Made by a program: the position numbers and the translations under genes. Source: Mobula hypostoma (Eukaryota). Taken from it: a stretch of 64,000 bases of DNA. The stretch's first letter is position 1. Every line of letters starts with the position of its first letter. The stretch lies in NCBI RefSeq assembly GCF_963921235.1, contig NC_086097.1:69070001-69134000 (forward strand), in the 5' to 3' direction. Below the pieces are notes generated by a model, which ran no database searches, had not been told where the DNA came from, and saw nothing but the letters and a program-made list of their open reading frames with translations. This document shows positions 5,946-64,000 of the stretch, one piece after another.

Positions 5946-7599
5946 GATGGTTTCATACTTGCTGATGTAGCCAAGAATCTTTTAGAGTGAGGAGTGGGGC
6001 AGAATGAAAGGAGAATATGATTTATGGCCACCTCTATGAACTATCAATTCTCAGAAAACAGGCTGAATATTCGCATTTCCTATTGAGAAATGTCTTGATT
6101 GACAACATTAAAACGCTTTAATCGATTAACTAAGATTGATTACATTCTATCAAAATGCTCCTTGTTATATACTGTAAGAATAAATAATAAATATCGCTAA
6201 GTGTCACAGCAGTTCAGATGGGTGCTTGAGTGTAGACATAGAAATACTGTAGTGGTTTTTGTACGGATGATTCTAATACTATTTTATATCTCTTGGATCA
6301 TATCATTTCACATGCACTATGTTTTATGTTTTATATTAAGAGGTTATATTCAGTCACTAGGCAGACCATGTGGTGTGAAACTGAAAGACTAAACTCATTG
6401 TTGAGCCAGTTCTTAATTTTGAAATCTAATTAACAATTAGTGCCATGGAACTTGCAGCAACTGTTATCTTATTTCCCTTTTTTCTCTTCCCCTGATCCAC
6501 CTGATCCCCATCACCTATCACTTCCCTTCCTATTTCCCTATCGCCGACAGACTCCTCCCAATAATTCCTCCCTAGCACCACTCCCTTTGCCCTCTCCACT
6601 TCCCAGTCTTCATTCCATAAGACCATAACACCATAAGACAAAGGAGCAGAAGTCGGCCGTTCGGCCCATCGAGTCTGCTCCGCCATTTTATGAGCTGATC
6701 CATTCTCCCATTTAGTCCCACTTCCTCGCCTTCTCACCATAACCTTTGATGCCCTGGCTAGTCAGATACCTATCAATCTCTGCCTTAAATACACCCAATG
6801 ACTTGGCCTCCACTGCTGCCCGTGGCAACAAATTCCATAGACTCACCACCCTCTGACTAAAAAAATTTCTTCGCATTTCTGTTCTGAATGGGCGCCCTTC
6901 AATCCTTAAGTCATGCCCTCTCGTACTAGACTCCCCCATCATGGGAAACAACATTGCCACATCCACTCTGTCCATGCCTTTCAACATTTGAAATGTTTCT
7001 CTGAGGTCTCCCCTCATTCTTCTAAACTCCAAGGAATACAGTCCAAGAGCGGACAAACATTTCTCATATGTTAACCCTCTCATTCCTGGAATCATTCTAG
7101 TGAATCTTCTCTGTACCCTCTCCAACGTCAGCACATCCTTTCTTAAATAAGGAGACCAAAACTGCCCACAGTACTCCGAGTGAGGTCTCACCAGCGCCTT
7201 ATAGAGCCTCAACATCACATCCCTGCTCCTATACTCTATTCCTCTAGAAATGAATGCCAACGTTACATTTGCCTTCTTCACTACCTGTCATAAGGAGGTG
7301 GCTGGGAATGGACCCAAGTGCAAGACACAGACACTGAAGTACCAGGGATAGGACTAGGATACAGGGTGAGGGCAAGGACATGGACACGAAAACCAGGAAC
7401 CCGGAACAGGACTGGACAAGAGAGTTAGGAGCCCGGGCTTGGACTCCGAGCCAGAGACTGGACAAGGACCCAGTACCTGGGTCTTGCCTCTGGCTTGGAC
7501 CCCAGAACTAGGCAAGGACAAGGGTTGGCTGGCAGGCAGGATGAGGCTGGAGTCTGAGACTTGAGGTGAGGCTTGGCAGGAGGCAGAAGACCTGAGGCG

Positions 7600-8397
7600 A
7601 GGCTTGGCAGAAAGCTGGAGTCTTCAGGCTTGGGGCTAGGCAGGAGGCTGGAGTCTTCAGGCTTGAGGCTAGGCAGGAGGCTGGAGTCTTCAGGCTTGAG
7701 GCTAGGCAGGAGGCTGGAGTCTTCAGGCTTGAGGCTAGGCAGGAGGCTGGAGTCTTCAGGCTTGAGGCTAGGCAGGAGGCTGGAGTCTTCAGGCTTGAGG
7801 CTAGGCAGGAGGCTGGAGTCTTCAGGCTTGAGGCTAGGCAGGAGGCTGGAGTCTTCAGGCTTGAGGCTAGGCAGGAGGCTGGAGTCTTCAGGCTTGAGGC
7901 TAGGCAGGAGGATGGAGTCTTCAGGCTTGAGGCTAGGCAGGAGGCTGGAGTCTTCAGGCTTGAGGCTAGGCAGGAGGCTGGAGTCTTCAGGCTTGAGGCT
8001 AGGCAGGAGGCTGGAGTCTTCAGGCTTGAGGCTAGGCAGGAGGATGGAGTCTTCAGGCTTGAGGCTAGGCAGGAGGATGGAGTCTTCAGGCTTGAGGCTA
8101 GGCAGGAGGATGGAGTCTTCAGGCTTGAGGCTAGGCAGGAGGATGGAGTCTTCAGGCTTGAGGCTAGGCAGGAGGATGGAGTCTTCAGGCTTGAGGCTAG
8201 GCAGGAGGATGGAGTCTTCAAGCTTGAGGCTAGGCAGGAGGATGGAGTCTTCAGGCTTGAGGCTAGGCAGGAGGCTGGAGTCTTCAGGCTTGAGGCTAGG
8301 CAGGAGGCTGGAGTCTTCAGGCTTGAGGCTTGGCAGGAGGCTGGAGTCTTCAGGCTTGAGGCTTGGCAGGAGGCTGGAGTCTTCAGGCTTAAGGCTA
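7600..8397. repeat. 33-bp minisatellite, about 24 copies
   Basis: Unit GGCTAGGCAGGAGGCTGGAGTCTTCAGGCTTGA, near-perfect copies, no spacers. Confidence 0.97.
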
Positions 8398-8431
8398 GAG
8401 ACACCTCCTGGGCAGGGTGTTGATCACCACC

Positions 8432-20835: not shown

Positions 20836-23399
20836 CTTTGCTATTCCTTAGGGGCATTTTCATCTTATCTTTCACTTCCTTTTTTAATTTAAAAAAATGA
20901 GGTGTATAAAAAACAATATTGGTAAACAAATGCTCACACATATACAAAGTAAAAATATGTCCTATAGTTTAGATTTAATAGCTAAATTAATAAAGTTAAG
21001 AAAAAACAGTTTCAGCTTTCCAGCTTCCTAATGACCTACTGGAGACAGATTGGCTCTGGGGTTGAATCATCCACATCAGGGACCATCCACCAACACAAGG
21101 GCTGGTCAATTCTGCTGGGTTAGTTTACAGTGAAACTCCTCAGATTCACCTGCAACACTGTTCCGAAGTGCCCTGCACTGCAGATAGCCAGAAAGGGGAT
21201 TAGGGGTGAGGAATGGGTTGGCGTACACAAAAATGTATAGCTTGGGGGGGGGGGGGGTCTAGATGAACACACTGAGTCTGTATTCTTCTGTACTCTCTCA
21301 TCACTCCGATATTGTTTCTCCTGTCCCTTCCACCCCAACATTCCCAAGTACCACATTCACCTGTTAGACCTGCACCAGGTACAGAGTGCTTCATTTGCTG
21401 AGGAGTAGCAAATGGGACTGAATATTGTGTAAACATCAGTGAAGGTCATTAATGGGAGGAAGATCATTAATGAAGCAGAGGTCATTGCCCTGAGGAACAA
21501 CTACCACCTTCCTCCTTTGTGAGATGTCCATCTCCATCTTTATTCCATATTTCTCCATCTATATTCTCCTTGATACCTATTGACTTCAGTTTTACCAGGA
21601 TTTCTTGATGCCACACAGAGATGAATGGCACCTTGAAGTCAAGAGCAAACCTCACCTCCAGAATTTATTTCTTTGATGCATATCTAGACTAAGGTCGTTA
21701 TGCCAAGTGGAGTTCAGAGGTCGTAACAAAATCAAACTGAACAGGTTATTGGTGAGTAAGTACTTCACCACAGGACTATCAACAACACTTCACTGTTGAT
21801 TAATAGCAGACTGATGTTTCAGTAAAAAACTGGTTCAAACTTGTCCTCTCTTGTGTGAATGGTTCATATACAGCACATTTTCCAACTTTTCAGGTAGATA
21901 CCAGTGCTGTAATTGCTCTATAGTAGCTTTGCCTGAGTCAGGTCCAGTTCTGGAATAAAGTTCTTCACTTCAGGTTGTTGTCTGATCCCTGGCCTTCGCT
22001 GCATGCATTGCTCGATATCATGTGAAATAAATACAAATGGTTAATGACTACCTTCTGTGATGGCAGGGGTCTCAGAACGAAGGAAAGATGGATCATCCAT
22101 TTGACATTTCTGGTTCAATATCAAAATGTTGACATTGAATATAATCTAACAGTTATTAATACAATAACTGGCCGGTGGTATCATTATTTTTAATGACAAG
22201 AATGCCTGATTCTGAACATAAAAAATTGTAAATAAAAGCATAATTTAAAGTTACATTTCTATTAGTTTTGATAGCTAATTTGCTAATTTTATTCAATAAA
22301 CTGATCTTCTGTACCTCTGACATTGTGTTCTGCCTCACTTCAGAAACCTACTGCGCAACTGAAATCTCTCCAAGCATCCACACCACAACTTTTGGGTTCA
22401 TTATTACAATAGGTTAATACCTCATCTAGAATACTTTAACACTGTATTCATTTACCAAATCCCCACTGTAAATATCTGCCACGGTTCATCTGTAAGCACT
22501 ATCACCTGAATCAGACAGTTTTGCTTCAATTTAGAGATGTGAACTTTCTCCACTGCAGAGGTGAAGGTGTGCTACCATCAGCAGTGGGGACTTCCAGATG
22601 GTATAAAACTAAACTTCGTCTCACATTAGCCTATCATATAAGATGCTGCAAAAATCTTTCAAAGATCAGGGGGATTATCTTGAGTGCCTTGGCTATCATT
22701 TATTCCCCGTATCTCATTAAACCTGATTGTTTAATCTTCATTACATTGCAATTTATAGAATCTAAGTTTGTATTAATTGGCTGTTACATTCCCAGCATTA
22801 GCAAACAATGATTTTGTTGGAAAACTAAATGAGTTCTCTGACTACAAAGCACTTTGTGACAGTGGAATTTACATAGCCATCTTCCAGTAATTGCACAGGT
22901 CCTGCAGTCATCACTTTACTTTTGCTAAGGCACATTAAGGCTAAAGAAAATAAGAGCAGGAGTAGACCTGTTTGTGCCAGAAATTCCAGTAATGTTGTAT
23001 CTTAGGGTTCAATCGATTAACTGATACAGCCTGCTTCATGTGACCTCACCATATCTCACATCTTTTTAGCTTAGTCATGCCAGTGTAGTCGTGTAATTAG
23101 TCAGGTTTCCAAATCCCACTATTGCTCGTTCAGGACGGAAAGGTGGATGTAAAGTCCATTGCTTTCCCCACTGGTAACTGTTTGTCAGGAATATACAAAT
23201 GTAGGCTGTATTTCCTAGAACTTAGAAGACGTAAGCACTTGCTTGATCAAAGTTTTTAAAATACTGTGAACATAAGAAACTGAGTCGTGAATAATCCAAT
23301 CCACAAACTCACAATTAATCTGTACAAAAACAAATTTCTACATATCAAAATATGAAAGATTTCATTGACAGCTCACAAGGAGCCATTCTTAAAAAGCGA

Positions 23400-23640
23400 A
23401 AAAAAGAGATTGCTGGAAATCTGAAATAAAAATAGAAAATGTTGAAGACACTCAGAAGCTCAGGCAGCATCTATGGAGGGAAAGAGTTGATGTTTCAAGT
23501 CAAAGATCTTTCATCAGAACATTTAACCCTTCTAATGAAGGTCTTCAACCTGAAATATTGGCCATTGTTCTCTTTCTACCAGATATGGGGAAAAAAAAGG
23601 CTTGATCTGCTGGGTATTTCCAAAATTTTCTGGTTTTTAT
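23400..23640. mobile_element. Old inverted pair of Penelope pLTR/hammerhead units
   Basis: GTTGATGTTTCAAGTCAAAGATCTTTCATCAGAA, a 10-nt spacer, then TTCTAATGAAGGTCTTCAACCTGAAATATTGG, with both downstream tails present. Confidence 0.6.
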
Positions 23641-23704
23641 CCTTAAAAACTGATTCTATTAAAACCAGCAAAGAGGATAATACTAAAACCAGCAAAGAGA
23701 ATAA

Positions 23705-30639: not shown

Positions 30640-31122
30640 CTGTCTGGGTAGCCTCCAACCTGATGGCATGAATATTGTTTTCTTGAATTTCCAGTAATGC
30701 CCTCCCATTCCCCATTCCCCATTCCCCATTCCCTATTGCCTCTCTCACCTTATCTCCTTACAGCCTGTTGCCTCTCTCTAGTGCTCCCCCCCCCACTTTC
30801 TTTCTTCCATGGCCTTCTGTCCTCTCTTATCAGATTCCCTCTTCTACAGCCCTGTATCTCTTTCACCAATCAACTTCCCAGCTTGTTACTTAACCCCTCC
30901 CCTCCCAGTTTCACCTATCACCTTGTTTTTCTTCCCCCCCCCTCCCCCCACCCCCCAACATTCTAACTGATGCCTCATCTTTTCTCTCCAGTCCTGATGA
31001 AGGGCCTTGGCCCGGAACGTCGACTGTACTCTTTTCCATAGAGGCTGCCTGGTCTGCTTGAGTTCCTCCAGCATTTTGTGTGTTGCTTAGATTTCCAGCA
31101 TCTACAGATGTTCTCTTGTTTG
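30640..31122 (+). mobile_element. Penelope-like element 3' end: EN C-terminus plus pLTR with hammerhead
   Basis: LGSLQPDGMNI (PLE GIY-YIG C-terminal motif), pyrimidine tract, then CAGTC CTGATGA AGGGCCTTGGCCC GGAAC GTC GACTG (30989-31026; GAAA core mutated to GGAA). Confidence 0.8.
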
Positions 31123-31338
31123 TGAATCAATAATTCTTTAGTTTTTGGTTGAAGGATATCCTGATCTTGGAAACGATTTTTGACTCTAGCAAGTATTCAC
31201 TTTGCCAATATATGTATTATTTCCAATTCAGTCCAACTTGGAAGAGTTTAACACAGGAAATGTTGCTCTCTATTAATAGTGTAGTTATCTTCCAATTGTC
31301 TACTGCTTTTATCACCCACTCTCTGATGACCTTTAATA

Positions 31339-31745
31339 CAGTGCTGGGCAAAAGTCTTCGGCACCTTAAATTTTTTATCTGGTTTCAGCCTCCACAGAGC
31401 CCTGATCTCAACATCATCAAAGCTGTCAGAGATTACCTGGAGAGACAGAAGCAAGCGAGACAGTTAAAGTCTGCAGAAGAACTGTGCCAGGTTCCCCAAG
31501 ATGCTTGGAGCAACCTACCAGCCGATTTTCTTATAAAACTGCATGACAGTGTACCTCAGAGAATTGATGAGGTTTTAAAGGCAAAGTGCAGTCACACCAA
31601 ATACTGATTTAATTTATTTGTTTCCGTTTACTCCTCTTTGTTGTAATTTTTTTGATATTTAGAAAAGTTTCACGTCGTTATGTTTGAAATCATCTTTGCT
31701 TTACAAAATTGTTTTACATATGCCTAAAACTTTTGCATAGAACTG
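31339..31745 (+). mobile_element. Tc1 internal-deletion derivative
   Basis: TA-flanked imperfect TIRs CAGTGCTGGGCAAAAGTCTTCGGCA and TGCCTAAAACTTTTGCATAGAACTG; transposase C-terminus PPQSPDLNII..KAKCSHTKY*. Confidence 0.85.
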
Positions 31746-32880: not shown

Positions 32881-35174
32881 ACAATCCTTGGAGATCTTCA
32901 CATCCAGGATTTTTCTTCCCTACTCCCTGCTTTCTAATAATTTCTCTGAGAAATATTGGGTCATCAGTCATATACAAACATAACCTAGTCTTCCCTACCA
33001 TTACTGCATATTATTTCTTAATGGTTATTAATGCTTTCAGTATTCTGTCCGTATTCTGACTGCTTTCTACTTCTTAACCTTACCTAAAAATGCATCTGGA
33101 AACAGGTGGGGCCTTGTGGTCATCAGCAAGGTAATAATACTTGAAGAAATCTCCCAACGAAAGTCAAGCAAGTCCCCATCGAGAAGATGGGGACTTCTCT
33201 TTTACCACTGTTCAGTCAGATCTCTGGAGAACTACATTCTCACCTAAATCGTTGAAACAGATGACAAACAACAGAGGACCCACCAACAATCCCTGTGGAA
33301 CATGACTGGTCACAGGCCTCCGCTACCACCCTCTGACTCCAGCCATAAAGCCAATTTTTTATCCAAATGGCTAGCACACCCTGGATCCCATGTAATCTAG
33401 TCTTCTAGATGTTCCTATGAAGTGGAAGTTTGTCAAAGGTCATGTTAAAATCCATGTAGATAACATCTGGCTCTTTGTTACCTGTTCTAAATAAAAATCA
33501 AATTTATAAGACATGCTGAGTATGCTGTGAGTATAGGGAGTTGGGAAAGAGGTTGAAGAGCAGGAACTCCAAGGTAGCAATCTTTGGATTACTCCCAATA
33601 CCACATGCTACTCAGTGCAGGAAAGATGAATGAGTGGTTGAGGAACTAGTGCAGGGGACATGTTTCAGGTTCTTGGATAATGGAGCCCCTTCTGGGGCAG
33701 AGGTGACCTGTACAAGAGGGACAGGTTGCACCTTAACTGGAAGGGAACCAACATCATGACTGTGAGATTCACTGGGTACTGCTCGGGAGGGATTAAACTA
33801 GTTTGGCAGGGGGATGGGATCCAAAGCACCAGATCAGAAAGTGGAGGGATAAAGAGCTCAGGGTCAGTAAAAGCAGGCAAGAGCAAGGTAATAGATATGA
33901 TAGGATAGATAGTTTGGTGTGTGTATTTTAATGCTCTGAGCATTATAGGTAAAGGTGATGAACTTAGAGCATGGATCAGTACATGGAACTATGATGTCAT
34001 GGTCATTGCAGAGACTTAGCTAAAAGAAGGATAGGAATGGGTGTTTAAAGACCCAGAGTTTTGATGTTTTAGTAAAGATGGAGAGGGAGGTGAGAGGGTT
34101 GTGGCAGGGCAGGGCAGATGCACTACTAATCAGGGATGATATCATAGCTGCACTCAGAGGGAACATATGGAAAGTTCATCCACTGAATCTATATGGGTAG
34201 AACTCAAAAAAATAGGAAGGGTGCAATCACTCTGATGGGTTGTACTGCAGATCCCTCTATAGCTACCGAGGCTTTAAGGAACAGATATGCAGCCAGATGA
34301 AGGAAAGGTGTAAAAACAATAGAGTTGTTGTCCACTTCCCTAACGTAACTGGGACGTAAGTGCAAGAGGTTTAGATGGGGCAGAATTTGTTAGGTACATC
34401 CAGGAGGGTCTGTTAAATCAATGCAGTATGTATATAGTCTAGCAAGAGTCAGGGATGTACTGGGCCTGGTTTTGGGTAAAGATACTGGCCAGATAACTGA
34501 CTTTTCAGTGGAAGAGCAATAAGGGAACAGTAACCACAACTTCTGAAGTTTTAAGATAGCTATGGATAAGGATAAGTATGGACCTTGCAGGAGAGTATTA
34601 AATTGGATCAGGGCAAACTATGAGAACATTAGGCAGGAACTAGGGAGAGTTAATTGGGAACAATTTGCTTGGGACAAGTCCATATCTGACATGTGGAGGG
34701 TACTTGAAGACCAACTGTACAGAATACAAGACAGGTATGTTCCAGTCAGAAGGAAGAACAAGGCTGGCAAGGCTCTTAATACCTTACACTAGTATTTACC
34801 CAGGAGAGGATGTGGAGAATAGGGAGCTCAGTGCTGAGCTTATTGATATATTGGCACATTTCAGGGTAAAGGAAGAGGTAGTACTGTGCCTCCTAAAGAG
34901 CATTAAGGTCATTAAGTCCCAGAACCTGGTGGGATATACCCCAGGTTATGGAGAGAGGCAGAAGATGGTATTGCTGGGACTTTGACCAATACCTTCATGA
35001 CCTCTCTAGCTTCAGGCAACGTCCTGGAAGACTGGTGAGTAACTAATGTTGTTCCATTGTTCAAGAAGGGATCCAGAAATAATCCTAGAAATTATAGACT
35101 GGTAAGTCTCATGTCAATGGTAGGGGGAGAGAATTCTTAAGGATGGGGTTTATTGCCATTTGGAAAACCATATC

Positions 35175-35350
35175 AGGAAGAGGCGCAGTCGACGTTTCAG
35201 GCCGAGACCCTTCGTCAGGACTGACGAAGGGTCTCGGCCTGAAACGTCGACTGCGCCTCTTCCTATAGATGCTGCCTGGCCTGCTGCGTTCACCAGCAAC
35301 TTTGATGTATGTTGCTTGAATTTCCAGCATCTGCAGAATTCCTGTTGTTT
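35175..35350. mobile_element. Young Penelope-derived insertion with an inverted 5' segment
   Basis: 44-bp perfect inverted repeat 35175-35218/35221-35264, then the pLTR tail; AGGAAGAG duplicated at 35175-35182 and 35351-35358; interrupts CR1 RT. Confidence 0.9.
35186..35223 (-). ncRNA. Minimal type I hammerhead ribozyme, core intact
   Basis: Minus strand CAGTC-CTGACGA-AGG(GTCTCGG)CCT-GAAAC-GTC^GACTG: stem I CAGTC/GACTG, CUGANGA and GAAA core, palindromic ACGU in place of stem III, GUC cleavage triplet. Confidence 0.8.
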
Positions 35351-38300
35351 AGGAAGAGTCAGCATGGCTTTTTGCGAGGCAAGTCATGTCTTACTAGCTT
35401 GATTGAGTTTTTTGACAAGGTGACGAGAGTGATTGATGAAGATAGAGCTGTGGATGTTGTCTATATGGATTTTAATAAGGCATTTGACAAGGTTCTTCAT
35501 GGGAGCTTCATCCAGAATGTTAAGATGCATGGGATCCATGGTGAATTGGCTGTTTGGATTCAGAATTGTCTTGCCCATGGAGACAGAGGGTAGTGTCAAA
35601 CGGACATACTCTAGCTGGAAGTCTGTGATTAATAAAGTGCCACAGGGACTTGTACTGGAGCCTCTGTTGTTTGTAATATAAATGACCTGGATGAAAATGT
35701 AAATGGTGGGGTAGTAAGTTTGCAGATGGTACAAAAATTGATGGTGTTGTGGATAGCATAGATGACTGGCAAAGAATGCAATGGGGTATACAGTAGATCA
35801 GTTGCAGATATTGTATGAGCAGAGGAAAGGCAGATGGAGTTTAACCTGGCTAGATGCGAAGAATTGCACCTTGGTAGGTCAAATGCAAAGAGACAATACA
35901 CTGATAACAGCAAGACCCTTAACAGTGTTAATGATCAGCAGGGATCTTGGGGTCCAAATTAATAGCTCCCTTAAAGTGGCTACACAGCTTGATTGGACAG
36001 TTAAGAAGACTTATGGCATGCTTGCCTTTATTAAGTCAAGGCATTGAGTTCAAAAGTCGGGAAGTTATGTTGCCGCTTTATAAAACTCTAGTTGGGCTGC
36101 ATCTGGATTACTGCATACAGTTCTGGTGGCCCCATTATAGGAACAATGTCGAGGCTTTGGAGAGGGTGCAGAAGAGGTTAACCAGGATGTTGCCAGGAGT
36201 AGAGGGCATATGCAAAAACAAGAGGTTGGACAAACATGTGTTGTTTCCTTTGGAATGGTGAATGCTGATGGGAGATCTGGTAGAGGTTTAAAGATTATGA
36301 GAGGCATAGATAGAGAAGGCAGTGTCTTTTCCCTAGGGCTGAAATGTCCAATACCAGCAGAGATGCACTTAAGGTGAGAGAGGGTAATTTCAGGCTTTTT
36401 ACACAGAGTGTGGTGGCTGCCTGGAATGCACTGCCTGAGGTAGTGGTAGAGGCAGATATATTAGTGACTTTTAAGAGACGTTATATAGGCATATGAATGT
36501 GAAGAAAATGGAAGGATATGAACATTGTGTAGGCAGAAGAGACTAATTTATAGTTGGCCATTTGATTACTGTCTTAATTAGTTTGGCAGAACATTGTGGG
36601 CCAGAAGGCTTGTTCCTAAGCAGTACTGTTCTTTTCTGTGTTCTGTGCCTTTTCTGTCATTGCCTTTCCAAATGCTGGTAGGTCCTGACACTCAGAATCC
36701 CCTGCAGAAACTTTCCCACCTCTGATATTAGGCTCACTAATCTGTAGTTCACGGGCTTGTCCTTGTCGCACTTTTAGAAAATAAGCACGACGACAGTCAT
36801 GTTTCAGTGTTCTGATATCTTAGCCACGGCTAAAGGTATCACTGCCAAGGCCTTGCTTCACACAAAATCCTAGAATACACTCGGCCAGCAGATTTGTCAA
36901 CCTCAATTTGTGATAAGACCACCAGCACCTCCTCTTTTTTTCATGTGGATCAAACTATATCCCCACAGTTACTCTATCAGACACAATTCTTCACATTGCA
37001 TTGTGGAAGCATCCTGTTTATAGTGGTCAGACATTTGCCCTGAAAATCGTGAGTTACAGAAAGGAGCTATCCTCACTACAACACTTGGCCCTGAGATCCA
37101 ATGGCCCTACCTTCAACTGTCCTGCAAAAGGCGGTCAGCCTTACTGCTAATTGCTTAGCCTGAAGCCCTGTATCACTGTTCATTGAACATTTTACCTCCT
37201 TTCACCCTCATACGCCTATAAAATCCCTTGTTATTTTGCTATTCTTAGTTCCTGCGCCTATTCTTCCTAATTGCTCATTTTGGTTTCTGCTGATCTAATT
37301 ACAAGCCTTTTTTTAAAAAAAAATACTTAGGTCTCAATCTTTGTTCTAAGCATTTAATATTGTCATGGAACCCTTGCCCTTTTTCATAATCAATTTAACA
37401 TGGAGCTGATTTTGTAATTTCTTGTTAAATCTACTCCATTATTAGAATGCTATTTGGCCTGACATTTTTCAAAATAATTAATCTGGGTTGATCCCAATTC
37501 ATATGACAGAAATAATTTAAATTCCACTCTATAATATTTGATTCAATGCCTTCTTTATTTTAAATGTAAACTTCAATGGATTATACCTGAATATTCTCGA
37601 TGTTAAACTATTTATTACTGTAGAATATTCAGCCCAGTGCATGTTCAGCATGCTGATAAGAAAGTGACCGTCCCTATGTTGAATGGAACTGGGAGTTATC
37701 TTTTGCACATGTGATCCGCAATCCCAAACAATCCACTGGCTGGTGGCAGGATTATCACATGTAGAAGATGGCACATTTAAATTCCCCTGCTACCATACAG
37801 GAAACAGTACCCTAGCATAAAAGCTAGGACCAACAGGCTCTGGGACAGCTTCTTCCACCAAGCCATCAGACTGATTAACTCATGCTGATACAATTGTATT
37901 TCTATATTGTAATGTAAAGACTTTTACTCCTCATGTATATGAAGGATGTAAGTAATAAAGTCAATTGAATTCAAGATGTTACCATTACAATAATACTCAC
38001 TCCAATGTTTGCCTAACAAGAGTCAAAACAAGCCAGCTGGACTAGGGGAGAAGGCCGGGAACTGGGGTTGAGGAGGAGATAGAAGAAAGGATCAGCCATG
38101 ATTGAATGGCAGAGCAGATTCAAAGGGCTGGATGGCCTAATTCTGCTCCTGTGTTTTATGGTCTTATGGACTAGCACTTGATTATACATCCAAGTCAGAA
38201 ATGGAACTGTGCATACGTGGGAGCCCTTAATGCAACTTTAACTCTTACACCAGTCCAGATGTAGCACCTGCATGGTAGGGGTTACCAAAAGCATTTCAAA

Positions 38301-53848: not shown

Positions 53849-55801
53849 CAATCTCCACTGTTCAGGCAAGTGATCCAGTTCTGTGCTTAATCTTTCCAAG
53901 ACCCCACGTTTGATCACCTCTCTAGTCCCTCACCAGGACTGTTTAGCCTGGAGTGAATCATCAAACCTCCTTGTTTGAGGAACCTTCAATTTGTCTCGAA
54001 ATTGTCCTGCATACTCCCTCTGAGATTAGGTTTGAGGAGATCCAAGTGTGAGTGCAAAGGATGAACCAGGAACAGCATAGCTGATGAGCTGTTGTTTGTG
54101 GAATGTGCTGCATTGTGATATACAAGGAGGAAATTGGCAAGCTTGTACTAACATTACTACCAAGAAATACGTGCCCATAAATGGTCTGGCAAAATCCACA
54201 TGAATCCCTTGCCAGGGCAGTGCAGGCCGTTCCCAGGGATGGCGAGCTGCTGCTCTTGGCATCTTCTAGAGGTGTTGGCATTGTGAACAGTGCATAGCAA
54301 GCTGCTGAATTTGCTGATCTATCCCAGGCCACCAGACAAAGGTCTGAGCCAATGCCGTCATTTTCACCATGCTGAGATGAACAACATGTAGCACCTCCAA
54401 CACTTCTGTTCTCAGCTTAGATAGTACAACAACTCTCAATCGCCTCATAACACAACCTCCATCATGGGCAAGTTCACCCCGTCACTGATAAAACTGGGGG
54501 AACTGGAAGTTCTGCTGCACATTCCAGCCATTTTTGGGTGGCCATGTAGTCCCGAGACAATGTGGGGTCTTTTCTAGTTTCCCTTTGGATCATGTCTGTC
54601 GTGACAGGAAAACTTCTGATTTGCATTAAGGAGAATATGTCAAGAGGAGTGTCTTATTTTGTAAATTTTTCAGATATTTCCTTTTCCCAGGGTAAACAGG
54701 GCAATCCATCAGCATTTCTGTGATTAATTATCCTCTTGAATTTGATCTTATAGTTGTGACCTCCAAGAAACAGAGCCCATCTCTGCACTTATGATGCTGC
54801 TGTTAGTGAAACACCCTTATGTGGATTGAAAATGGACACCAGCGGTTGATGATCAGTAATGAGGGTAATCCTCTCCCATACAAGTACTGATTGAAACGTT
54901 TTCTACCCCAAATCAGACTCAAGGCCTCTCTGTCAATCTGTGCATAATTTTTCTCTGCAGTGGTAAGGGAACATGATGCAAAGGCTATGAGGTGTTCACT
55001 TCCATAACTTATAATATGTGACATGGCTGCACCGATGCCATAGGCATCACAGGCAAGCTTCCCTGGATCATGGTGTGAGTACAGTGTCCGATGTCACCAT
55101 TTCCTTTACCTTTTTAAAAGTCACCTCATACTGCTTTGTCCATTGCCATTTTTTCCTGATCTGTAGCAATGAGTTGAAGTGCTGGAGCACAGTAGCTGGA
55201 TTTGGCAGGAACCTGTTACAGTAATTGACAAATCCTCAAAAGGACTGCAACTGTGACACATCCTTTGGCCTTAAGGTATCCTTCACTCCTTGAATTTTCT
55301 CAGCACATGTAAAACTTGTGTGTCAATGGTGTAACCACAGTAAGTGATGCTTGGTTGAAAGAATTCACACTTGCCATGATGTGCTGTGAGCCCATAATCT
55401 TCTAATCTTGTTAACACTCTCTTGAGATTCTGGAGATGTTCCTTGTCATCCTTACAGGTAACAATGATGTCATCCAGGTAACACTGAGTGCCTGGGCAGC
55501 CTTGCAGCACCTGATCCTTGGTTTTCTGATGGAGTGCAGGTGCAGATGCTACTACAAAAATAAGCCTATTATAGCGATAAAGCCATTGTGAGTGCTTATG
55601 GTGAGAAACACTTTGGACTCTTCTTTCATCTCCGTCTGTAGCTGGACCTCAGTTGAATCCACTTTGCTGAAGTGTTTCTCTCCAGAAAGGTTTGCAAAGA
55701 TATCCTCTATCCTGGGCAGAGAGTATTGGGTTGATGGTGACCTTAAAACCACCGTAGATCCTGTCAGACTGTTCAGACTGTGATGGAGAGCACTTGGTAA
55801 A

Positions 55802-55931
55802 CACATTCCTTACACACAGCCACACACACAACATAGACACACACACACAAACACAAACACACAGACACACACACAGAAACACACGCAAACACACAAACAC
55901 ACATAAAACAGACAGACACACACACACACAT
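55802..55931. repeat. Imperfect (CA)n microsatellite
   Basis: Directly visible in the sequence. Confidence 0.95.
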
Positions 55932-56729
55932 TCTGCTGTCACTGTGTTCAGTGTACTCATTTCAATATTTTTCCTAGTCTGTTCGTATAATGGGTCCTAA
56001 ACTGAGTTGATGCACTTGGGTTGGCTCTATGGTGCCTTTCCCAGCATACACTGCAGAATATTCCAATTTTTCATAATGGGGATGTGTAAATATGTACCTG
56101 CTGTTTCCATATAGTAGTTAAGGTAGATACTTCTGTTTATTTTGCAATATGTAACTACATTGTGGGAGCATCATATTCTAATTCATGTGTAGTCAAGTTA
56201 ACTTTGTGGATAATTAAAGATGGTTCTGTCCTAGTGCCTAATAAAATGAGGCTCTTTGCCCTCAGTAGGAAAGAGTGATAGGGGCTGCCAGGAGTTCACA
56301 CCAGAAAAGTAAGTATGGAGCTATTATTGTGTTTTCTGGACAATATGTTTTTGTAAATATTGGCAGTTTTCTTTTCATTATTTTACTAATTTTTGAGCTT
56401 GATCTTGATGCACCTAATAATCACACTTGCTCTAGAGTACTAAGCGACTCCAGCCATTTTTTTTCATTTGGTCACAACCCACGTATCTAACATATGGCGT
56501 CCATGGTGGGATGGCCAATTGCAAGCAGCTGCGTTAAACTCGGCGGGGAGAGGGGTATCGTGGTCCCAGGTCAGGAAATCCCTGAAGCTAAAACTGAAGC
56601 AAATGCCTGGGAAACCACAAAGACCTCAGAGGAGAAAGAACTTCAGACCAGGACAAACTCTATCTAGAAGCAGGAGGGCCTTCAAGTGGCACCACCTCTG
56701 AACCTTCCCTGGAAAATCTGTTCAGAGAC

Positions 56730-57468
56730 CTTCGATTTTTGGCTTGCAGTGGTTTCCTCTGTGGTGCTTTCAAAGAACACCATTCTTGTTCAGTATTTTT
56801 CTTATAGTGGACACATGAACAGAGTCTTCAACAAATTTTACAGATTTCTGCAGGTCTTTTGCTGTTACCCTTGGGTTCTTTTTCACCTCCTTTGACATTG
56901 CACATTGTGCTCGGTGTGATTTTCGCAGGATGCCCACTCCCGGGGAAGAGTACTGAGTTTCCCCCATTTGTAGTTTATCTCACTGTGGACTGATGAGCAC
57001 TCAGGTCTTTAGAAATGCTTTTGTAGCCTTTTCCAGTTTCATGCGTCTTTACAATTCTTCTTCCAAGATCCTCTGGAAATTGTTTTGATCGAGGTATGGT
57101 GCACGTAAACAGATCTTTCTTGAAAAGAGCAGGCTTTGTCAGTAACCTGACTAGGTGTGTCTTTTATAGGGCAGGACACCTCTACAACCCACACTTCCAA
57201 TCCTATCTCATTGATTGGAGCACCTGACTCTAAATAGCTTTTGTAGAAGGCATTACTCCAGAGGTTCACGTACATTTTCCAACAAATATATGTAATATTG
57301 GATCATTTTTCTCAATAAATAAATGAAGTATACTGTTTCTGTGTTATTTATTTAATTTGGTTCTCGTTATCTAGTATTAGGACTTGTGTGAAGATCTGAT
57401 CACATTTTAGGTCATATTTATACAGAAATAGAGAAGATTCTACAGGGTTCACAAACTTTCTAGCACTA
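56730..57468 (-). mobile_element. Tc1 transposon 5' part
   Basis: TIR-like GTGCTAGAAAGTTTGTGAACCC; transposase N-terminus ..GKGYKSISKDL..STVR and KEVKKNPRVTAKDLQKS..VHVSTIRKILNKNG. Confidence 0.85.
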
Positions 57469-58516
57469 CCACACATTGTGGGGTGCATCAAATTCCAATC
57501 CATGTGTAGTCTTAAGTTAACTTTGTGGGTAATTAAAGATGGTATGCCCTGGTGCCTCATAAAGTGGGGCTCTTTGCATGCGCTATCTCCTCCAACAGAG
57601 TCAAATGAAAGCGAATTAAGGAAGGCACTGGATGATGCTATGGCTGTGTTCAAGGATGGACTGGAAAAACTCAAAGATATCAAGAGTAAAATCATTTTAA
57701 ATGAAAATGAAAGAGTGATAGGGGCTGCCAGGAATTTACACCAGAAGAATAAGTATGCAGCTATTATTGTGTTTTCTAGTCAATATCTTTTTGTAAATAT
57801 TGGCAGTTTTTCTTTCACTATTTTCGATAATTTTCTTCAGTTTAATTTTTGAAGCATCCAATAAACACCCTTGCACTAAAGTACTGAGCAACTACAGCCA
57901 TTTTTTTTTCCTTTGGTCTATATCTGCATATCTAACACAGGTCATTGTTTCTTGGCTACTGGGACCAATAGCATTGCCCATGGGCTCCACCCAAACCCAG
58001 AAAGAATTCCTTCAGCCCCCATGCAAACTTGCTCACAGGCTACTTTATCACAGATAGCATAAAAACCAGAAAGGTGTTGCAAAACTCAAATGTGGCAGTT
58101 TCATTGAAAACGATTTTACTCTTGATATATTTGAGTATTCCAATTCACCCTTGAACACAGCTGTAGCATCATCCAGTGCCTTCCTTAATTCACTTTCAGC
58201 TGGCTCTGTTGGAGGGGATGTGGCATGCAAATGGTGGATGCATCTCCAAACACATTATAGTTGTCTCAGACACTCACGAGTTCACAATTCTGACCCTCCT
58301 GCTTTTACCACTTACAAGCCTAATGTTTCACTGTTACGAATGTCATTCCCATAGGAGTTACTTTTTTGAAGCATAGGTTCTTAGTTGGATATTTGCAGGC
58401 TTCAGTTCAGTGTTCTTGAAGTGCCATTCAAACTCACTTTGTGGAATGACTGAAAAAGCCTAGCCAGTGTCCAAATACATTTTAATTAATTTGCCGTTCA
58501 CCTCGGCTTGTCTCTT

Positions 58517-58695
58517 TAAAAATGCACACACAAGGAAATCTGCAGATGCTGGAAATTCAAGCAACGCACACAAAATGCTGGTGGAATGCAGCAGGCCAGG
58601 CAGCATCTCTAGGAAGCAGTACAGTCGACTGTACTTCTTCTTACAGATGCTACCTGGCCTGCTGCATTCCACCAGAATTTTGTGTGTGTGGCTTG
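58517..58695. mobile_element. Penelope-derived palindromic insertion centred on GTCGAC
   Basis: Arms ~58558-58626 and 58627-58695; GGCTTGTCTCTT duplicated at 58505-58516 and 58690-58701. Confidence 0.85.
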
Positions 58696-59899
58696 TCTCT
58701 TGTTAGTTTTCATATTTTAAGTCTCAAGGCTACTTAGTCCTGAGTAACTCTCATCGTTATCAGAGTTTTCATCAACAACAAGCAGATCAGTGCTCTTTTT
58801 GAAACTACAACTTGACTTTTTATGTTTTTCTCTTTCCTGTGCAGTCCATTTATTTTTGTCTGCCTGGCATACTCTTTGTATGTGTCCTACTTTGTTGCAT
58901 TTTCTGCAAGTTTCGCCTTCAAACCTCCATTGGTCTGGTGTATGTGAGCCCCTGCCACAATGGTAACACCATTTGTTCAGCCAGGCTGGTTTCTGTTTTG
59001 ACATTACAAGTTTGTTCATGCTCACTTTCATTTGCAATTGTGTCTCTGACTGCTGTTTCCATTGATATAGCAATTTCAACTGCTCTTTTAACTGAGAGTT
59101 GTATTTCAGTTAGGAGCTATTTTTGAATGCTTTCCTGTAAGATTCCACAAACTGAACGATCTCTCAGTACATCATTAGGCTCTTCACTGAACTGACAATG
59201 CTCAGACAATCTCTTTAATTCGGCGCATACACTGAAATGAACTCTTTCCTTTTGTTTCCACTTATGAAACCTGAAGTATTCTGCAATCAACAATGATTTT
59301 TCTTCTAAATGTTCCTGCATTACATTCATGATATCAGCAAAACTCATTTTGTCTGGTTTGGTTGGAGCAGTCAAATCTGTATGCTTTTCCACCCAATGCA
59401 CTCATCAAAACTGGCACTCGCTTTTCATTGTCTACTTCATTCGCTTTAAAATACTGCTCAATTTGCTCAGTGTATATCAGTCAGATATCTTTTGTGCAAA
59501 CAAATTAATTTACCTTTCTGATGCAGCCAGCCATTTTTACTTGCTTTTTAAAAAATTTATTATCATTATCACCCGGTACTCACTGTTAATAAACCCGTGA
59601 AATTCATCCGTTTTCTACCTTTTTTTAACTTGCATCTATGTCCCTTCCTAAAAAAGCACGTGATATGATTTTTTAAAAAATTCAGACATCTCACCGCTGC
59701 TTTTTAAACTCAAACATCTTGCTGCACTTCAACGGGTAGGTAGTCATCTTGGGTTCATTATAGGACTCAATCACCACCACTGTTATGTTTTGTAAATCAA
59801 AAACAAAAATCATCTACACAAAGGACTGGGTAACCTCCTCCTGTCTGTAAATTTCCATGATTTTATGAATATGCCACAGAGCATCTGCAGAGGGTGAAT

Positions 59900-62872: not shown

Positions 62873-64000
62873 ATAGGCTTTGATTTTCTGCCTGAAAAAA
62901 TTGTGACACCCTAGAATTTTTTGGCCCACTCTCTCCTGATGGAAGTAGTAAAAGCTTAAAAATTGCTGCAGCAAGCTAATATTTCTGATGATTTAAAACT
63001 GGCATTTTTGTGCATACTCTACATTAAACTGGGTTAAAATGACAAAGCTGCTCCATATTTTTTAATCTCACTATTCATTTTCAGGATAATTTTTTTGCTT
63101 CTTCAGCAAAAATATTTTTCTTCATCAGTACTGCAAATAGACCAAATGCTCTATAATGACATACTCCCAGTTTTACAAACAGAGGCATATAAGTCATAAT
63201 TTAATCCAGTTACAATTCATCACAAATGAAGGACAACATTTAACCATTGAGAAAATAAAAGGCTTTCAAATTGCAAACTATGGATCTACTTTACAAAAAC
63301 TCTTTAATGTTGAAAAGCGTACAAAAGTAAATTATAAAATATTATTTATTACTAAAAGCTACCAAAGTATAAAATGATAGACTGCAGTGCTTACTATTTA
63401 CATTTAAAGTGAGAATGGTAATATATTCTAAGATGCTGGTTTAAGTTTACAGATCAAACAGCAGTTCTTGCAGTAGTTTCATGATGAGAAACGCACTGAG
63501 AATAGATCAACAAAATCCACATTTCATTTTGTCTTTCATTGCTTTTGCTGTGGCCTTAAAATAATTCACGTCTGCATCTGAGTTCCAATCTTTGGCCCTC
63601 TGACACTGAGAGAAGATACTTAGCACAATCGAATAATTTAGGATGGTTTCCCTGAATCCAATGATGCTAAATGACAAGAAGATTAAAAGTGAACATTGGA
63701 GGAAGACAACCAAATACTTATAATTAACATTATGGTTAAGTCTGGTGACAGCTTTGCTGTTACTGCAAAAATCTGCAGTGAGAAGATCACGAAAAGCAGG
63801 CCCCCTCCATGGACTCTGTCCACAGTTCTTACTGCCAGTATAACCAAAGATCTCACTCAAACTGACATTTTCTGTTCTCCGTGCCATTGGGCAGAAGAAA
63901 CAAAAGGCCCATGCCACCAGGCTCAAGGACAACTTCAATCCCCCATTATAATACTATTGAGTTGTTCCCTAGTACAATAAATACAGGCTCTTGACTTAAC

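Follow-up and report, generated by a model that had tools for sequence, protein, structure and literature searches.

The segment at 35175-35358 of the 64-kb window (the whole stretch of DNA that was analysed) is, in the reading that we favour and consider quite probable, a recent dead-end insertion of a Penelope-like element (PLE), derived from a hugely abundant hammerhead-bearing repeat and lying inside an old LINE, with a hairpin that would block folding of the ribozyme. The insert is 168 bp in size and has neither an ORF nor poly(A), and tandem units are absent from the locus. Its left part is a perfect hairpin with arms at 35175-35218 and 35221-35264 (44 nt, 100% complementary, 2 nt apart); the second-longest perfect hairpin in the 64 kb, counting arms of at least 10 bp and loops of at most 10 nt, has arms of 11 bp. 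The octamer AGGAAGAG occurs at 35175-35182 and again at 35351-35358, as an 8-bp direct repeat that extends by 0 bases on either side, and we take these to be the left and right copies of a target duplication. The left copy (35175..35182, plus strand) doubles as the outer end of the inverted arm, being identical to element bases 35257-35264 read on the opposite strand (an 8-nt microhomology), and the reading frame of the interrupted LINE continues through it. The right copy (35351..35358, plus strand) has no homology to the element end. Between the two copies lie the short inverted arm beyond the duplication (35183..35223, minus strand), which bears a complete minimal hammerhead, and the forward arm of 130 nt (35221..35350, plus strand), which is a 5'-truncated end of the repeat family and stops at an end point shared by the family. 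At the inversion junction (35219..35223), the 2-nt loop reads GA on the plus strand and TC on the minus strand, and 2-3 nt (35221-35222 or 35221-35223) are common to both arms. A mir-789 or mir-3926 precursor was considered for the hairpin and rejected (52 bits, against Rfam gathering cut-offs of 100 and 82), as the long stem alone was matched.

The surrounding sequence is a decayed LINE (33529..36475, plus strand), detected by tblastn with the window's own LINE frames, and its reverse-transcriptase region is split by the insert. We take this LINE to be CR1-like; a weak RVT_1 match at 35351-35560 (E 0.006) falls below the cut-off. Among 104 reading frames compared with Pfam, the only matches above the curated cut-off were reverse-transcriptase/RNase H domains and one ALKBH8_N, which is presumably LINE-derived.

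The repeat family is represented in the window by 16 matches, the locus at 35175 included, in a profile search at E values up to 1; the 8 window copies from which the profile was made are necessarily among the matches. Contigs of four runs (X1, X5, X17 and X9) were mapped onto 34700-35900, with 71,387 contigs mapped from X1 and 46,544 from X5. The summed depth in X1 is 3.6-10 million over four bins at 35192-35355 versus ~30-100 in quiet flank bins, a figure that is not a copy number. Among the 24 rows listed of 1,895, loose ends occur at the family end point 35350 in 232 contigs of X1 and 226 of X5, and at a second end point, 35316, in 10 contigs of X17. The two end points are ~32-34 nt apart, and the stretch between them (35317..35350, plus strand) is probably an optional "tail" as defined in PMC8557442 and PMC11167929; the right arm of the pair at 58.6 kb likewise ends ~32 nt earlier. 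Translation of the forward arm yielded two proteins among 7 candidates, both of which are Mobula gene models with the repeat as an exon (94% and 78% identity), suggesting that the host is a ray. The family sequence is also abundant in X17 and X9, although these runs are only presumed to be RNA and are uninformative on the locus at 35175-35358.

Three other sites in the window show more of the family's structure. One is a longer and older copy at 30640..31122 (plus strand), which contains ~19 codons of an ORF end (30640-30697), a pyrimidine-rich stretch, the hammerhead motif and the tail; it retains the native stem I strand upstream of the core, and its 3' end is the same as that of the forward arm. 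We take the ORF end to resemble the C-terminus of a PLE endonuclease. Searches with these ~19 codons gave no informative relative: a tandem-repeat protein with 7/17 identities was rejected, and an atlas match of 0.75 for the ORF remnant was uninformative. Searches from this ORF end linked no reverse transcriptase or GIY-YIG ORF to the repeat family, so the PLE identity rests on architecture and ribozyme type. Both of these agree with the Penelope-like origin proposed in the first-pass annotation. A second head-to-head pair, at 58505..58701, has arms that are identical at 61/69 positions and a 12-bp flanking direct repeat; it is centred on a 6-bp palindrome across the predicted cut site (58626/58627), and the last ~32 nt are present in one arm and missing from the other. 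The third head-to-head pair, at 23388..23649, is old, with an 8-bp flanking direct repeat and with both decayed cores lying a few bases downstream of the junction. Beyond the window, pattern scans gave 0 matches in viral contigs and 0 and 0 in metagenome contigs, while 37 prokaryote loci that matched over only 19-23 nt were dismissed as chance. In the literature covered, for the most part freely accessible papers, there was no description of this ray family, of twin priming by PLEs or of a stem I boundary; Repbase or Dfam may hold entries for the repeat.

The mapped contigs also bear on the possibility, which we regard as extremely unlikely, that the hairpin is an assembly or library artefact such as a fold-back chimera. 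Among the 32 pieces listed of ~127,000 mapped, no contig spans the hairpin centre, and coverage across the left junction extends for only 26 nt, as would be the case for a chimera. This coverage comes from a contig of organism A (run X1) that matches 35043-35200 with zero differences and reaches 26 nt past 35174, under the 31-letter rule for bridging. An artefact is nevertheless hard to reconcile with this zero-difference contig over the left junction, with a non-palindromic loop made of genuine family bases, with an exact target duplication, or with the presence of similar junctions in runs of two organisms.

The insertion is young, as the first-pass annotation had proposed from its retained CpGs. 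This follows from its CpG content relative to the flanks, from the identity of the arms (44/44) and from a contig of a relative that leaves the window at the duplication. The observed/expected CpG ratio is 0.91 in the insert (11 CpG), versus 0.09 and 0.17 in the 1-kb flanks and 0.24 in the window, and three older family copies have ratios of 0.13-0.37. The contig of the relative, organism B, has single-copy depth and tracks 34700-35174 with 8 differences in 475 nt (98% identical) before departing exactly at 35174, with 29 further letters that are unmatched there. It thus stops one base before the duplication, which is what a left-aligned joint of the empty site to 35351 would give, and the insert is presumably absent from organism B; the empty-site joint itself is not among the best-supported 15 of 628 joints. 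At 35255 and 35309, letters other than those of the window make up, respectively, 97% and 97% of the depth in X5 versus 66% and 80% in X1 (in part an undercount), as well as 89% and 99.7% in X9 versus 64% and 88% in X17. The window's letters are thus commoner in the organism A runs than in the organism B runs, a hint that the subfamily of this copy expanded in the organism A lineage.

The hammerhead motif was identified with a strict descriptor for minimal type I hammerheads, modelled on PMC4209133 (core boxes, 4-bp stem II, palindromic helix III region, stem I of at least 4 bp). Its sole match in the window is the minus strand at 35223-35186, and there were 0 matches in 100 Markov-simulated windows. 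The motif (35186..35223, also folded as a monomer) comprises, all on the minus strand, a 5-bp stem I (35223-35219 with 35190-35186), the core (35218-35212) followed by an extra A (35211), a 4-bp stem II (35210-35207 with 35202-35199), GAAA (35198-35195) and the palindromic ACGU (35195-35192), with the predicted cut between 35191 and 35190. The core boxes CUGANGA, GAAA and UH occur in type I order, an unpaired base lies between positions 9 and 10.1, and positions 15.2-16.2 are palindromic (ACGU) without a stable helix III. The plus-strand core, which begins at 35221, lacks the 5' strand of stem I. The first-pass annotation had been correct in describing exact 44-nt arms around a 2-nt loop, a complete minimal hammerhead of the dimer type on the minus strand and a plus-strand core deprived of its stem I 5' arm. 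The first pair of stem II (10.1-11.1) is G-U in this motif and G-C in the 31-kb copy. Because G10.1-C11.1 is highly conserved in minimal hammerheads (PMC4209133), the G-U pair is expected to lower the activity of this copy, leaving the motif type of the family intact. The outermost stem I base (35223), and hence the outermost pair, may have been donated by the other arm: family contigs that cease to fit after 35222 carry another base next (agreement 0.52), and protein P0002 concurs. Across 8 decayed copies, 73% of the cells in stems I and II are paired, versus 22-43% in slid registers, but this pairing does not beat shuffles, 85 of 500 of which attain the observed value; 3 of the 9 pairs have two-sided changes.

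In its genomic context this ribozyme probably does not work. The RNA of the two arms is predicted to fold at -93.6 kcal/mol (z about -18) into a 44-bp duplex, which would abolish the ribozyme fold at 35175-35264, and in the predicted fold of a 250-nt minus-strand transcript the pair probabilities of stems I and II are ~1e-20 or lower. In addition, the head-to-head cores are on opposite strands and so cannot provide a tandem partner for cleavage as a dimer. It is highly improbable, in our estimation, that the unit is a retrozyme-like small mobile ribozyme that cleaves itself, alone or as a dimer, and is able to cut a host pre-mRNA. Such a ribozyme would account for the minus-strand motif that satisfies the descriptor, for stems I and II that pair at a probability of 0.88-1.0 in the predicted fold of the isolated 38-mer, and for the abundance of the family in the two runs presumed to be RNA. 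However, the core of the same 38-mer mispairs at a probability of at least 0.98, the conserved G-C pair is replaced by G-U, and the upstream arm, which is transcribed first, is predicted to sequester the whole motif. The unit is also not tandem, whereas retrozymes are so by definition, and metazoan minimal hammerheads are reported to have no activity as monomers and low activity as dimers (PMC4209133; review PMC6765202). The first-pass annotation had further inferred a recent mobile ribozyme insertion that could lie in the sense strand of a host intron if a candidate minus-strand gene is real, and had proposed a check against Rfam. Its framing of the unit as a mobile or active ribozyme is not supported. 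The unit appears instead to be a truncated by-product with stems I and II disabled by the predicted 44-bp duplex, and the hairpin matched no Rfam hammerhead family at E values up to 10, giving generic hairpin matches only, below cut-off. As for the intron, the surroundings are the decayed LINE; no host gene was found in the window among the 104 frames searched against Pfam and two exon-like frames (63510-63953 and 57400-57849, neither with a convincing relative), although short exons could escape such a search.

The junctions are most likely accounted for, every one of them, by two cDNAs, of which the second was primed through the 8-nt match and was joined to the first via the 2-3 shared bases. 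The enzymology and order of events that we infer are as follows. The endonuclease of the element would make staggered cuts 8 nt apart, and the lower strand would prime reverse transcription without homology at the fixed internal start of the family (35350), giving a cDNA of 130 nt toward the 5' side of the RNA. The AGGAAGAG end of the upper strand would then pair with the 8 matching nucleotides that lie just 3' of the ribozyme in the same RNA, and prime a second cDNA of 41 nt. Both cDNAs would stop at the 5' edge of the ribozyme and be joined via the 2-3 shared bases, and fill-in would produce the palindrome and the duplication. The right junction, without homology and on the fixed end of the family, is as expected from internal, non-homologous initiation. 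At the left junction, an 8-nt match would arise by chance with a probability of ~1.5e-5 at a given junction and ~0.002 anywhere in 130 nt, which bears out the microhomology suspected there in the first-pass annotation. Purified PLE protein from the anole cleaves the target on both strands, extends each of them and initiates, without homology, at two internal sites of the RNA (PMC11167929); priming driven by homology is not what was reported in vitro for that element.

The order of bases at the inversion junction distinguishes between several ways of making the palindrome. The GA loop on the plus strand means that the short left arm extends beyond the long arm on the 5' side. The short arm includes family bases that are missing from the long one, which excludes copying from the forward arm alone. 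These bases (at least 35219-35220) weigh against the idea that a plain 130-nt insertion came first and that the inverted copy arose from a later event at the DNA level, such as template switching at a replication fork or a further insertion. Template-switch events show short flanking microhomologies, and short microhomologies (8 nt and 2-3 nt) do flank the inverted segment on both sides; but the arms are identical, down to a minority family variant at 35255, and a single duplication frames them both, and we give a later DNA-level event very little credence.

The position of GA on the plus strand also excludes that the cDNA primed at 35350 simply folded back, since GA would then be on the minus strand. 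The main rival to the two-cDNA model is instead self-priming of antisense RNA. Here the same element is involved, but the antisense RNA (or one cDNA) would fold back at a short quasi-palindrome at the 5' edge of the ribozyme, be copied into a hairpin and be integrated, with one arm trimmed at the 8-nt target match. PMC3846280 reads the palindromes of head-to-head PLEs as self-priming on an antisense template, and the order on the plus strand (antisense arm, GA loop, sense arm) fits this scheme, which predicts the same loop orientation; the 58.6-kb pair is likewise centred on a native palindrome. Against this, the primer would be very weak (a 2-3-bp stem with a 2-4-nt loop), and in vitro both strands are extended from sense RNA (PMC11167929). 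The listed joints, the best-supported 15 of 628, consist of 11 antisense-to-forward arm joints, which are other head-to-head copies, together with 1 internal deletion and 3 joints within the LINE. Of the 11 head-to-head joints, 8 have one arm that terminates at 35219-35224 and another that begins 45-94 nt downstream, and such unequal arm ends are better explained by two separate cDNAs than by a continuous fold-back. We regard self-priming as unlikely.

The same 8 of 11 joints, again among the best-supported 15 of 628, have in common that the antisense arm exits within the 5' strand of stem I (35219-35224), a hint, and given selection and mapping bias no more than that, of a preference of inversion junctions for the outer edge of this stem. 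Four of them use the same 2-3-base overlap as the locus at 35175-35358, and one of the eight rows has intervening letters in X9. Binomial p values for this clustering (2e-4 to 4e-3) are not relied on, as they come from only the 15 best-supported of 628 joints; moreover, the window's antisense arm ends at 35222-35223, so that longer arms cannot give direct joints. A splice acceptor is one candidate cause of the boundary, since directly upstream of the stem I edge the 31-kb copy shows a pyrimidine tract that terminates in CAG, and Drosophila Penelope contains an intron that extends up to the 5' end of helix I (PMC4209133, PMC2377424). Two junctions lie on the predicted cut site, namely 58626/58627 and one row of the 12 listed of 314. 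We do not accept these as proof of cleavage, because the former is equally explained by the 6-bp palindrome and the latter could be chance. More speculatively, and with more doubt than confidence on our part, palindromic mini-insertions might mark the outer edge of stem I, and not the cut site, as a discrete RNA end or as a hard stop for reverse transcription, the ribozyme region bounding cDNA length, possibly via a splice acceptor, with the minority of cut-site junctions recording cleavage in vivo and with PLEs using homology-guided twin priming alongside non-homologous initiation. If so, both cDNAs would run to the stem I edge, and the most complete events, the one at 35175-35358 among them, would become perfect hairpins that silence their own ribozyme.

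As a single locus, the insert carries little weight, being a young and probably inert scar that one retroelement left within another, itself dead. Its interest is that of a well-preserved fossil of PLE integration. The formation of head-to-head ends by PLEs and the role of the hammerhead in vivo are left open in PMC8557442 and PMC11167929, and so abundant and recently active a family provides a very large number of junctions for counting. Twin priming and a defined RNA boundary would become directly testable if the outer junctions of short inverted arms showed an excess of microhomology and the inner ones were concentrated at the stem I edge.

PLE insertions have been described as bearing at the 5' end a truncated copy in inverted orientation, with an optional tail of 30-40 bp (PMC8557442), and as having 8-10-bp duplications and palindromes at the inverted junction (PMC3846280). 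The unit at 35175-35358 shares with endonuclease-bearing PLE units the head-to-head arrangement, a short palindrome or overlap at the junction, the lack of poly(A) and two alternative 3' end points ~32-34 nt apart (the optional tail). An inverted, 5'-truncated partner at the 5' end is present here and in the two other window pairs. The hammerhead lies in the terminal repeat, and in the 30.6-31.1-kb copy the motif is downstream of an ORF end and a pyrimidine-rich stretch. A short target duplication (8 bp) surrounds the whole unit, for which an empty site is presumed. Unlike published PLE units, the 168-bp insert is very small and has no ORF, its inverted arm ends at an internal 8-nt target match and not at a fixed end point, and both of its arms terminate no more than a few bases from the ribozyme's 5' edge, giving a perfect hairpin. 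In the twin priming reportedly described for L1 by Ostertag and Kazazian in 2001, the second target strand is said to anneal inside the RNA and prime a second cDNA, which leaves the 5' segment inverted and linked through microhomology. In L1, the parts into which an inversion divides the element normally do not overlap, whereas the two cDNAs here overlap by 44 nt, and this overlap results in the hairpin.

The ribozyme resembles the minimal type I hammerheads of metazoan PLEs (Cervera and De la Pena 2014, PMC4209133) in its intact core, the extra base before stem II, the 5-bp stem I, the absence of loop III and the palindromic 15.2-16.2, and the same paper likewise reports motif pairs on opposite strands, 100-700 bp apart. 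It differs from them in the 4-bp stem II with G-U at 10.1-11.1 and in that the two motifs abut, one hiding the other; cartilaginous fish are not named in the parts of it that were covered. As in the anole element Poseidon PAc (Frangieh et al. 2024, PMC11167929), internal start sites ~110-150 nt downstream of the ribozyme core set the end and the tail, and both target strands would be cut and extended, but priming by PAc is non-homologous and the second junction here has an 8-nt match. Non-LTR retrozymes (bioRxiv 10.64898/2026.07.22.740005), reported in one chondrichthyan genome, are similarly short, non-coding PLE derivatives with type I hammerheads, in which monomer copies are common; they are, however, head-to-tail tandems in which each unit has a hammerhead, while the unit at 35175-35358 is head-to-head and single. 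By its architecture and ribozyme type, this unit is most likely a truncated head-to-head PLE insertion.

The forward arm of the young head-to-head insert (35221-35350, 130 nt) is open throughout in one frame (35223-35348), and in two Mobula gene models, represented by the proteins P0002 and P0003, the repeat has been taken in as an in-frame exon. Two further frames that looked exon-like by eye, at 57400-57849 (plus strand) and 63510-63953 (minus strand), gave no convincing match in a search for relatives. Several frames are also open in a tandem array of units of about 36 bp at 7500-8420, which adjoins a young LINE copy.

In one contig of the sequencing run X1, among the 12 of 314 joints listed, the family 3' end at 35350 is followed by three letters and then by a return to 35249. 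The latter position is the first base past the predicted hammerhead cut site, and the joint is a head-to-tail junction.

Directly downstream of the long family copy (30640-31122) lies a weak match to the DDE_3 transposase (31134-31604; E 9e-5, below the cut-off). A decayed LTR-retrotransposon-like remnant occupies 54806-59109 on the minus strand, with RVT_1 and RT_RNaseH above the cut-off and a weak zinc knuckle, and its span includes an older head-to-head pair of the repeat family (58505-58701), the center of which is exactly the palindrome across the predicted cut site. A third, much older pair (23388-23649) comes from a diverged subfamily, in which the letter differences in stem I are apparently compensatory changes. 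The 58505-58701 pair carries a 12-bp direct repeat, and because the right copy overlaps the end of the arm, junction microhomology is suggested here too, as at the young insert (35175-35358).
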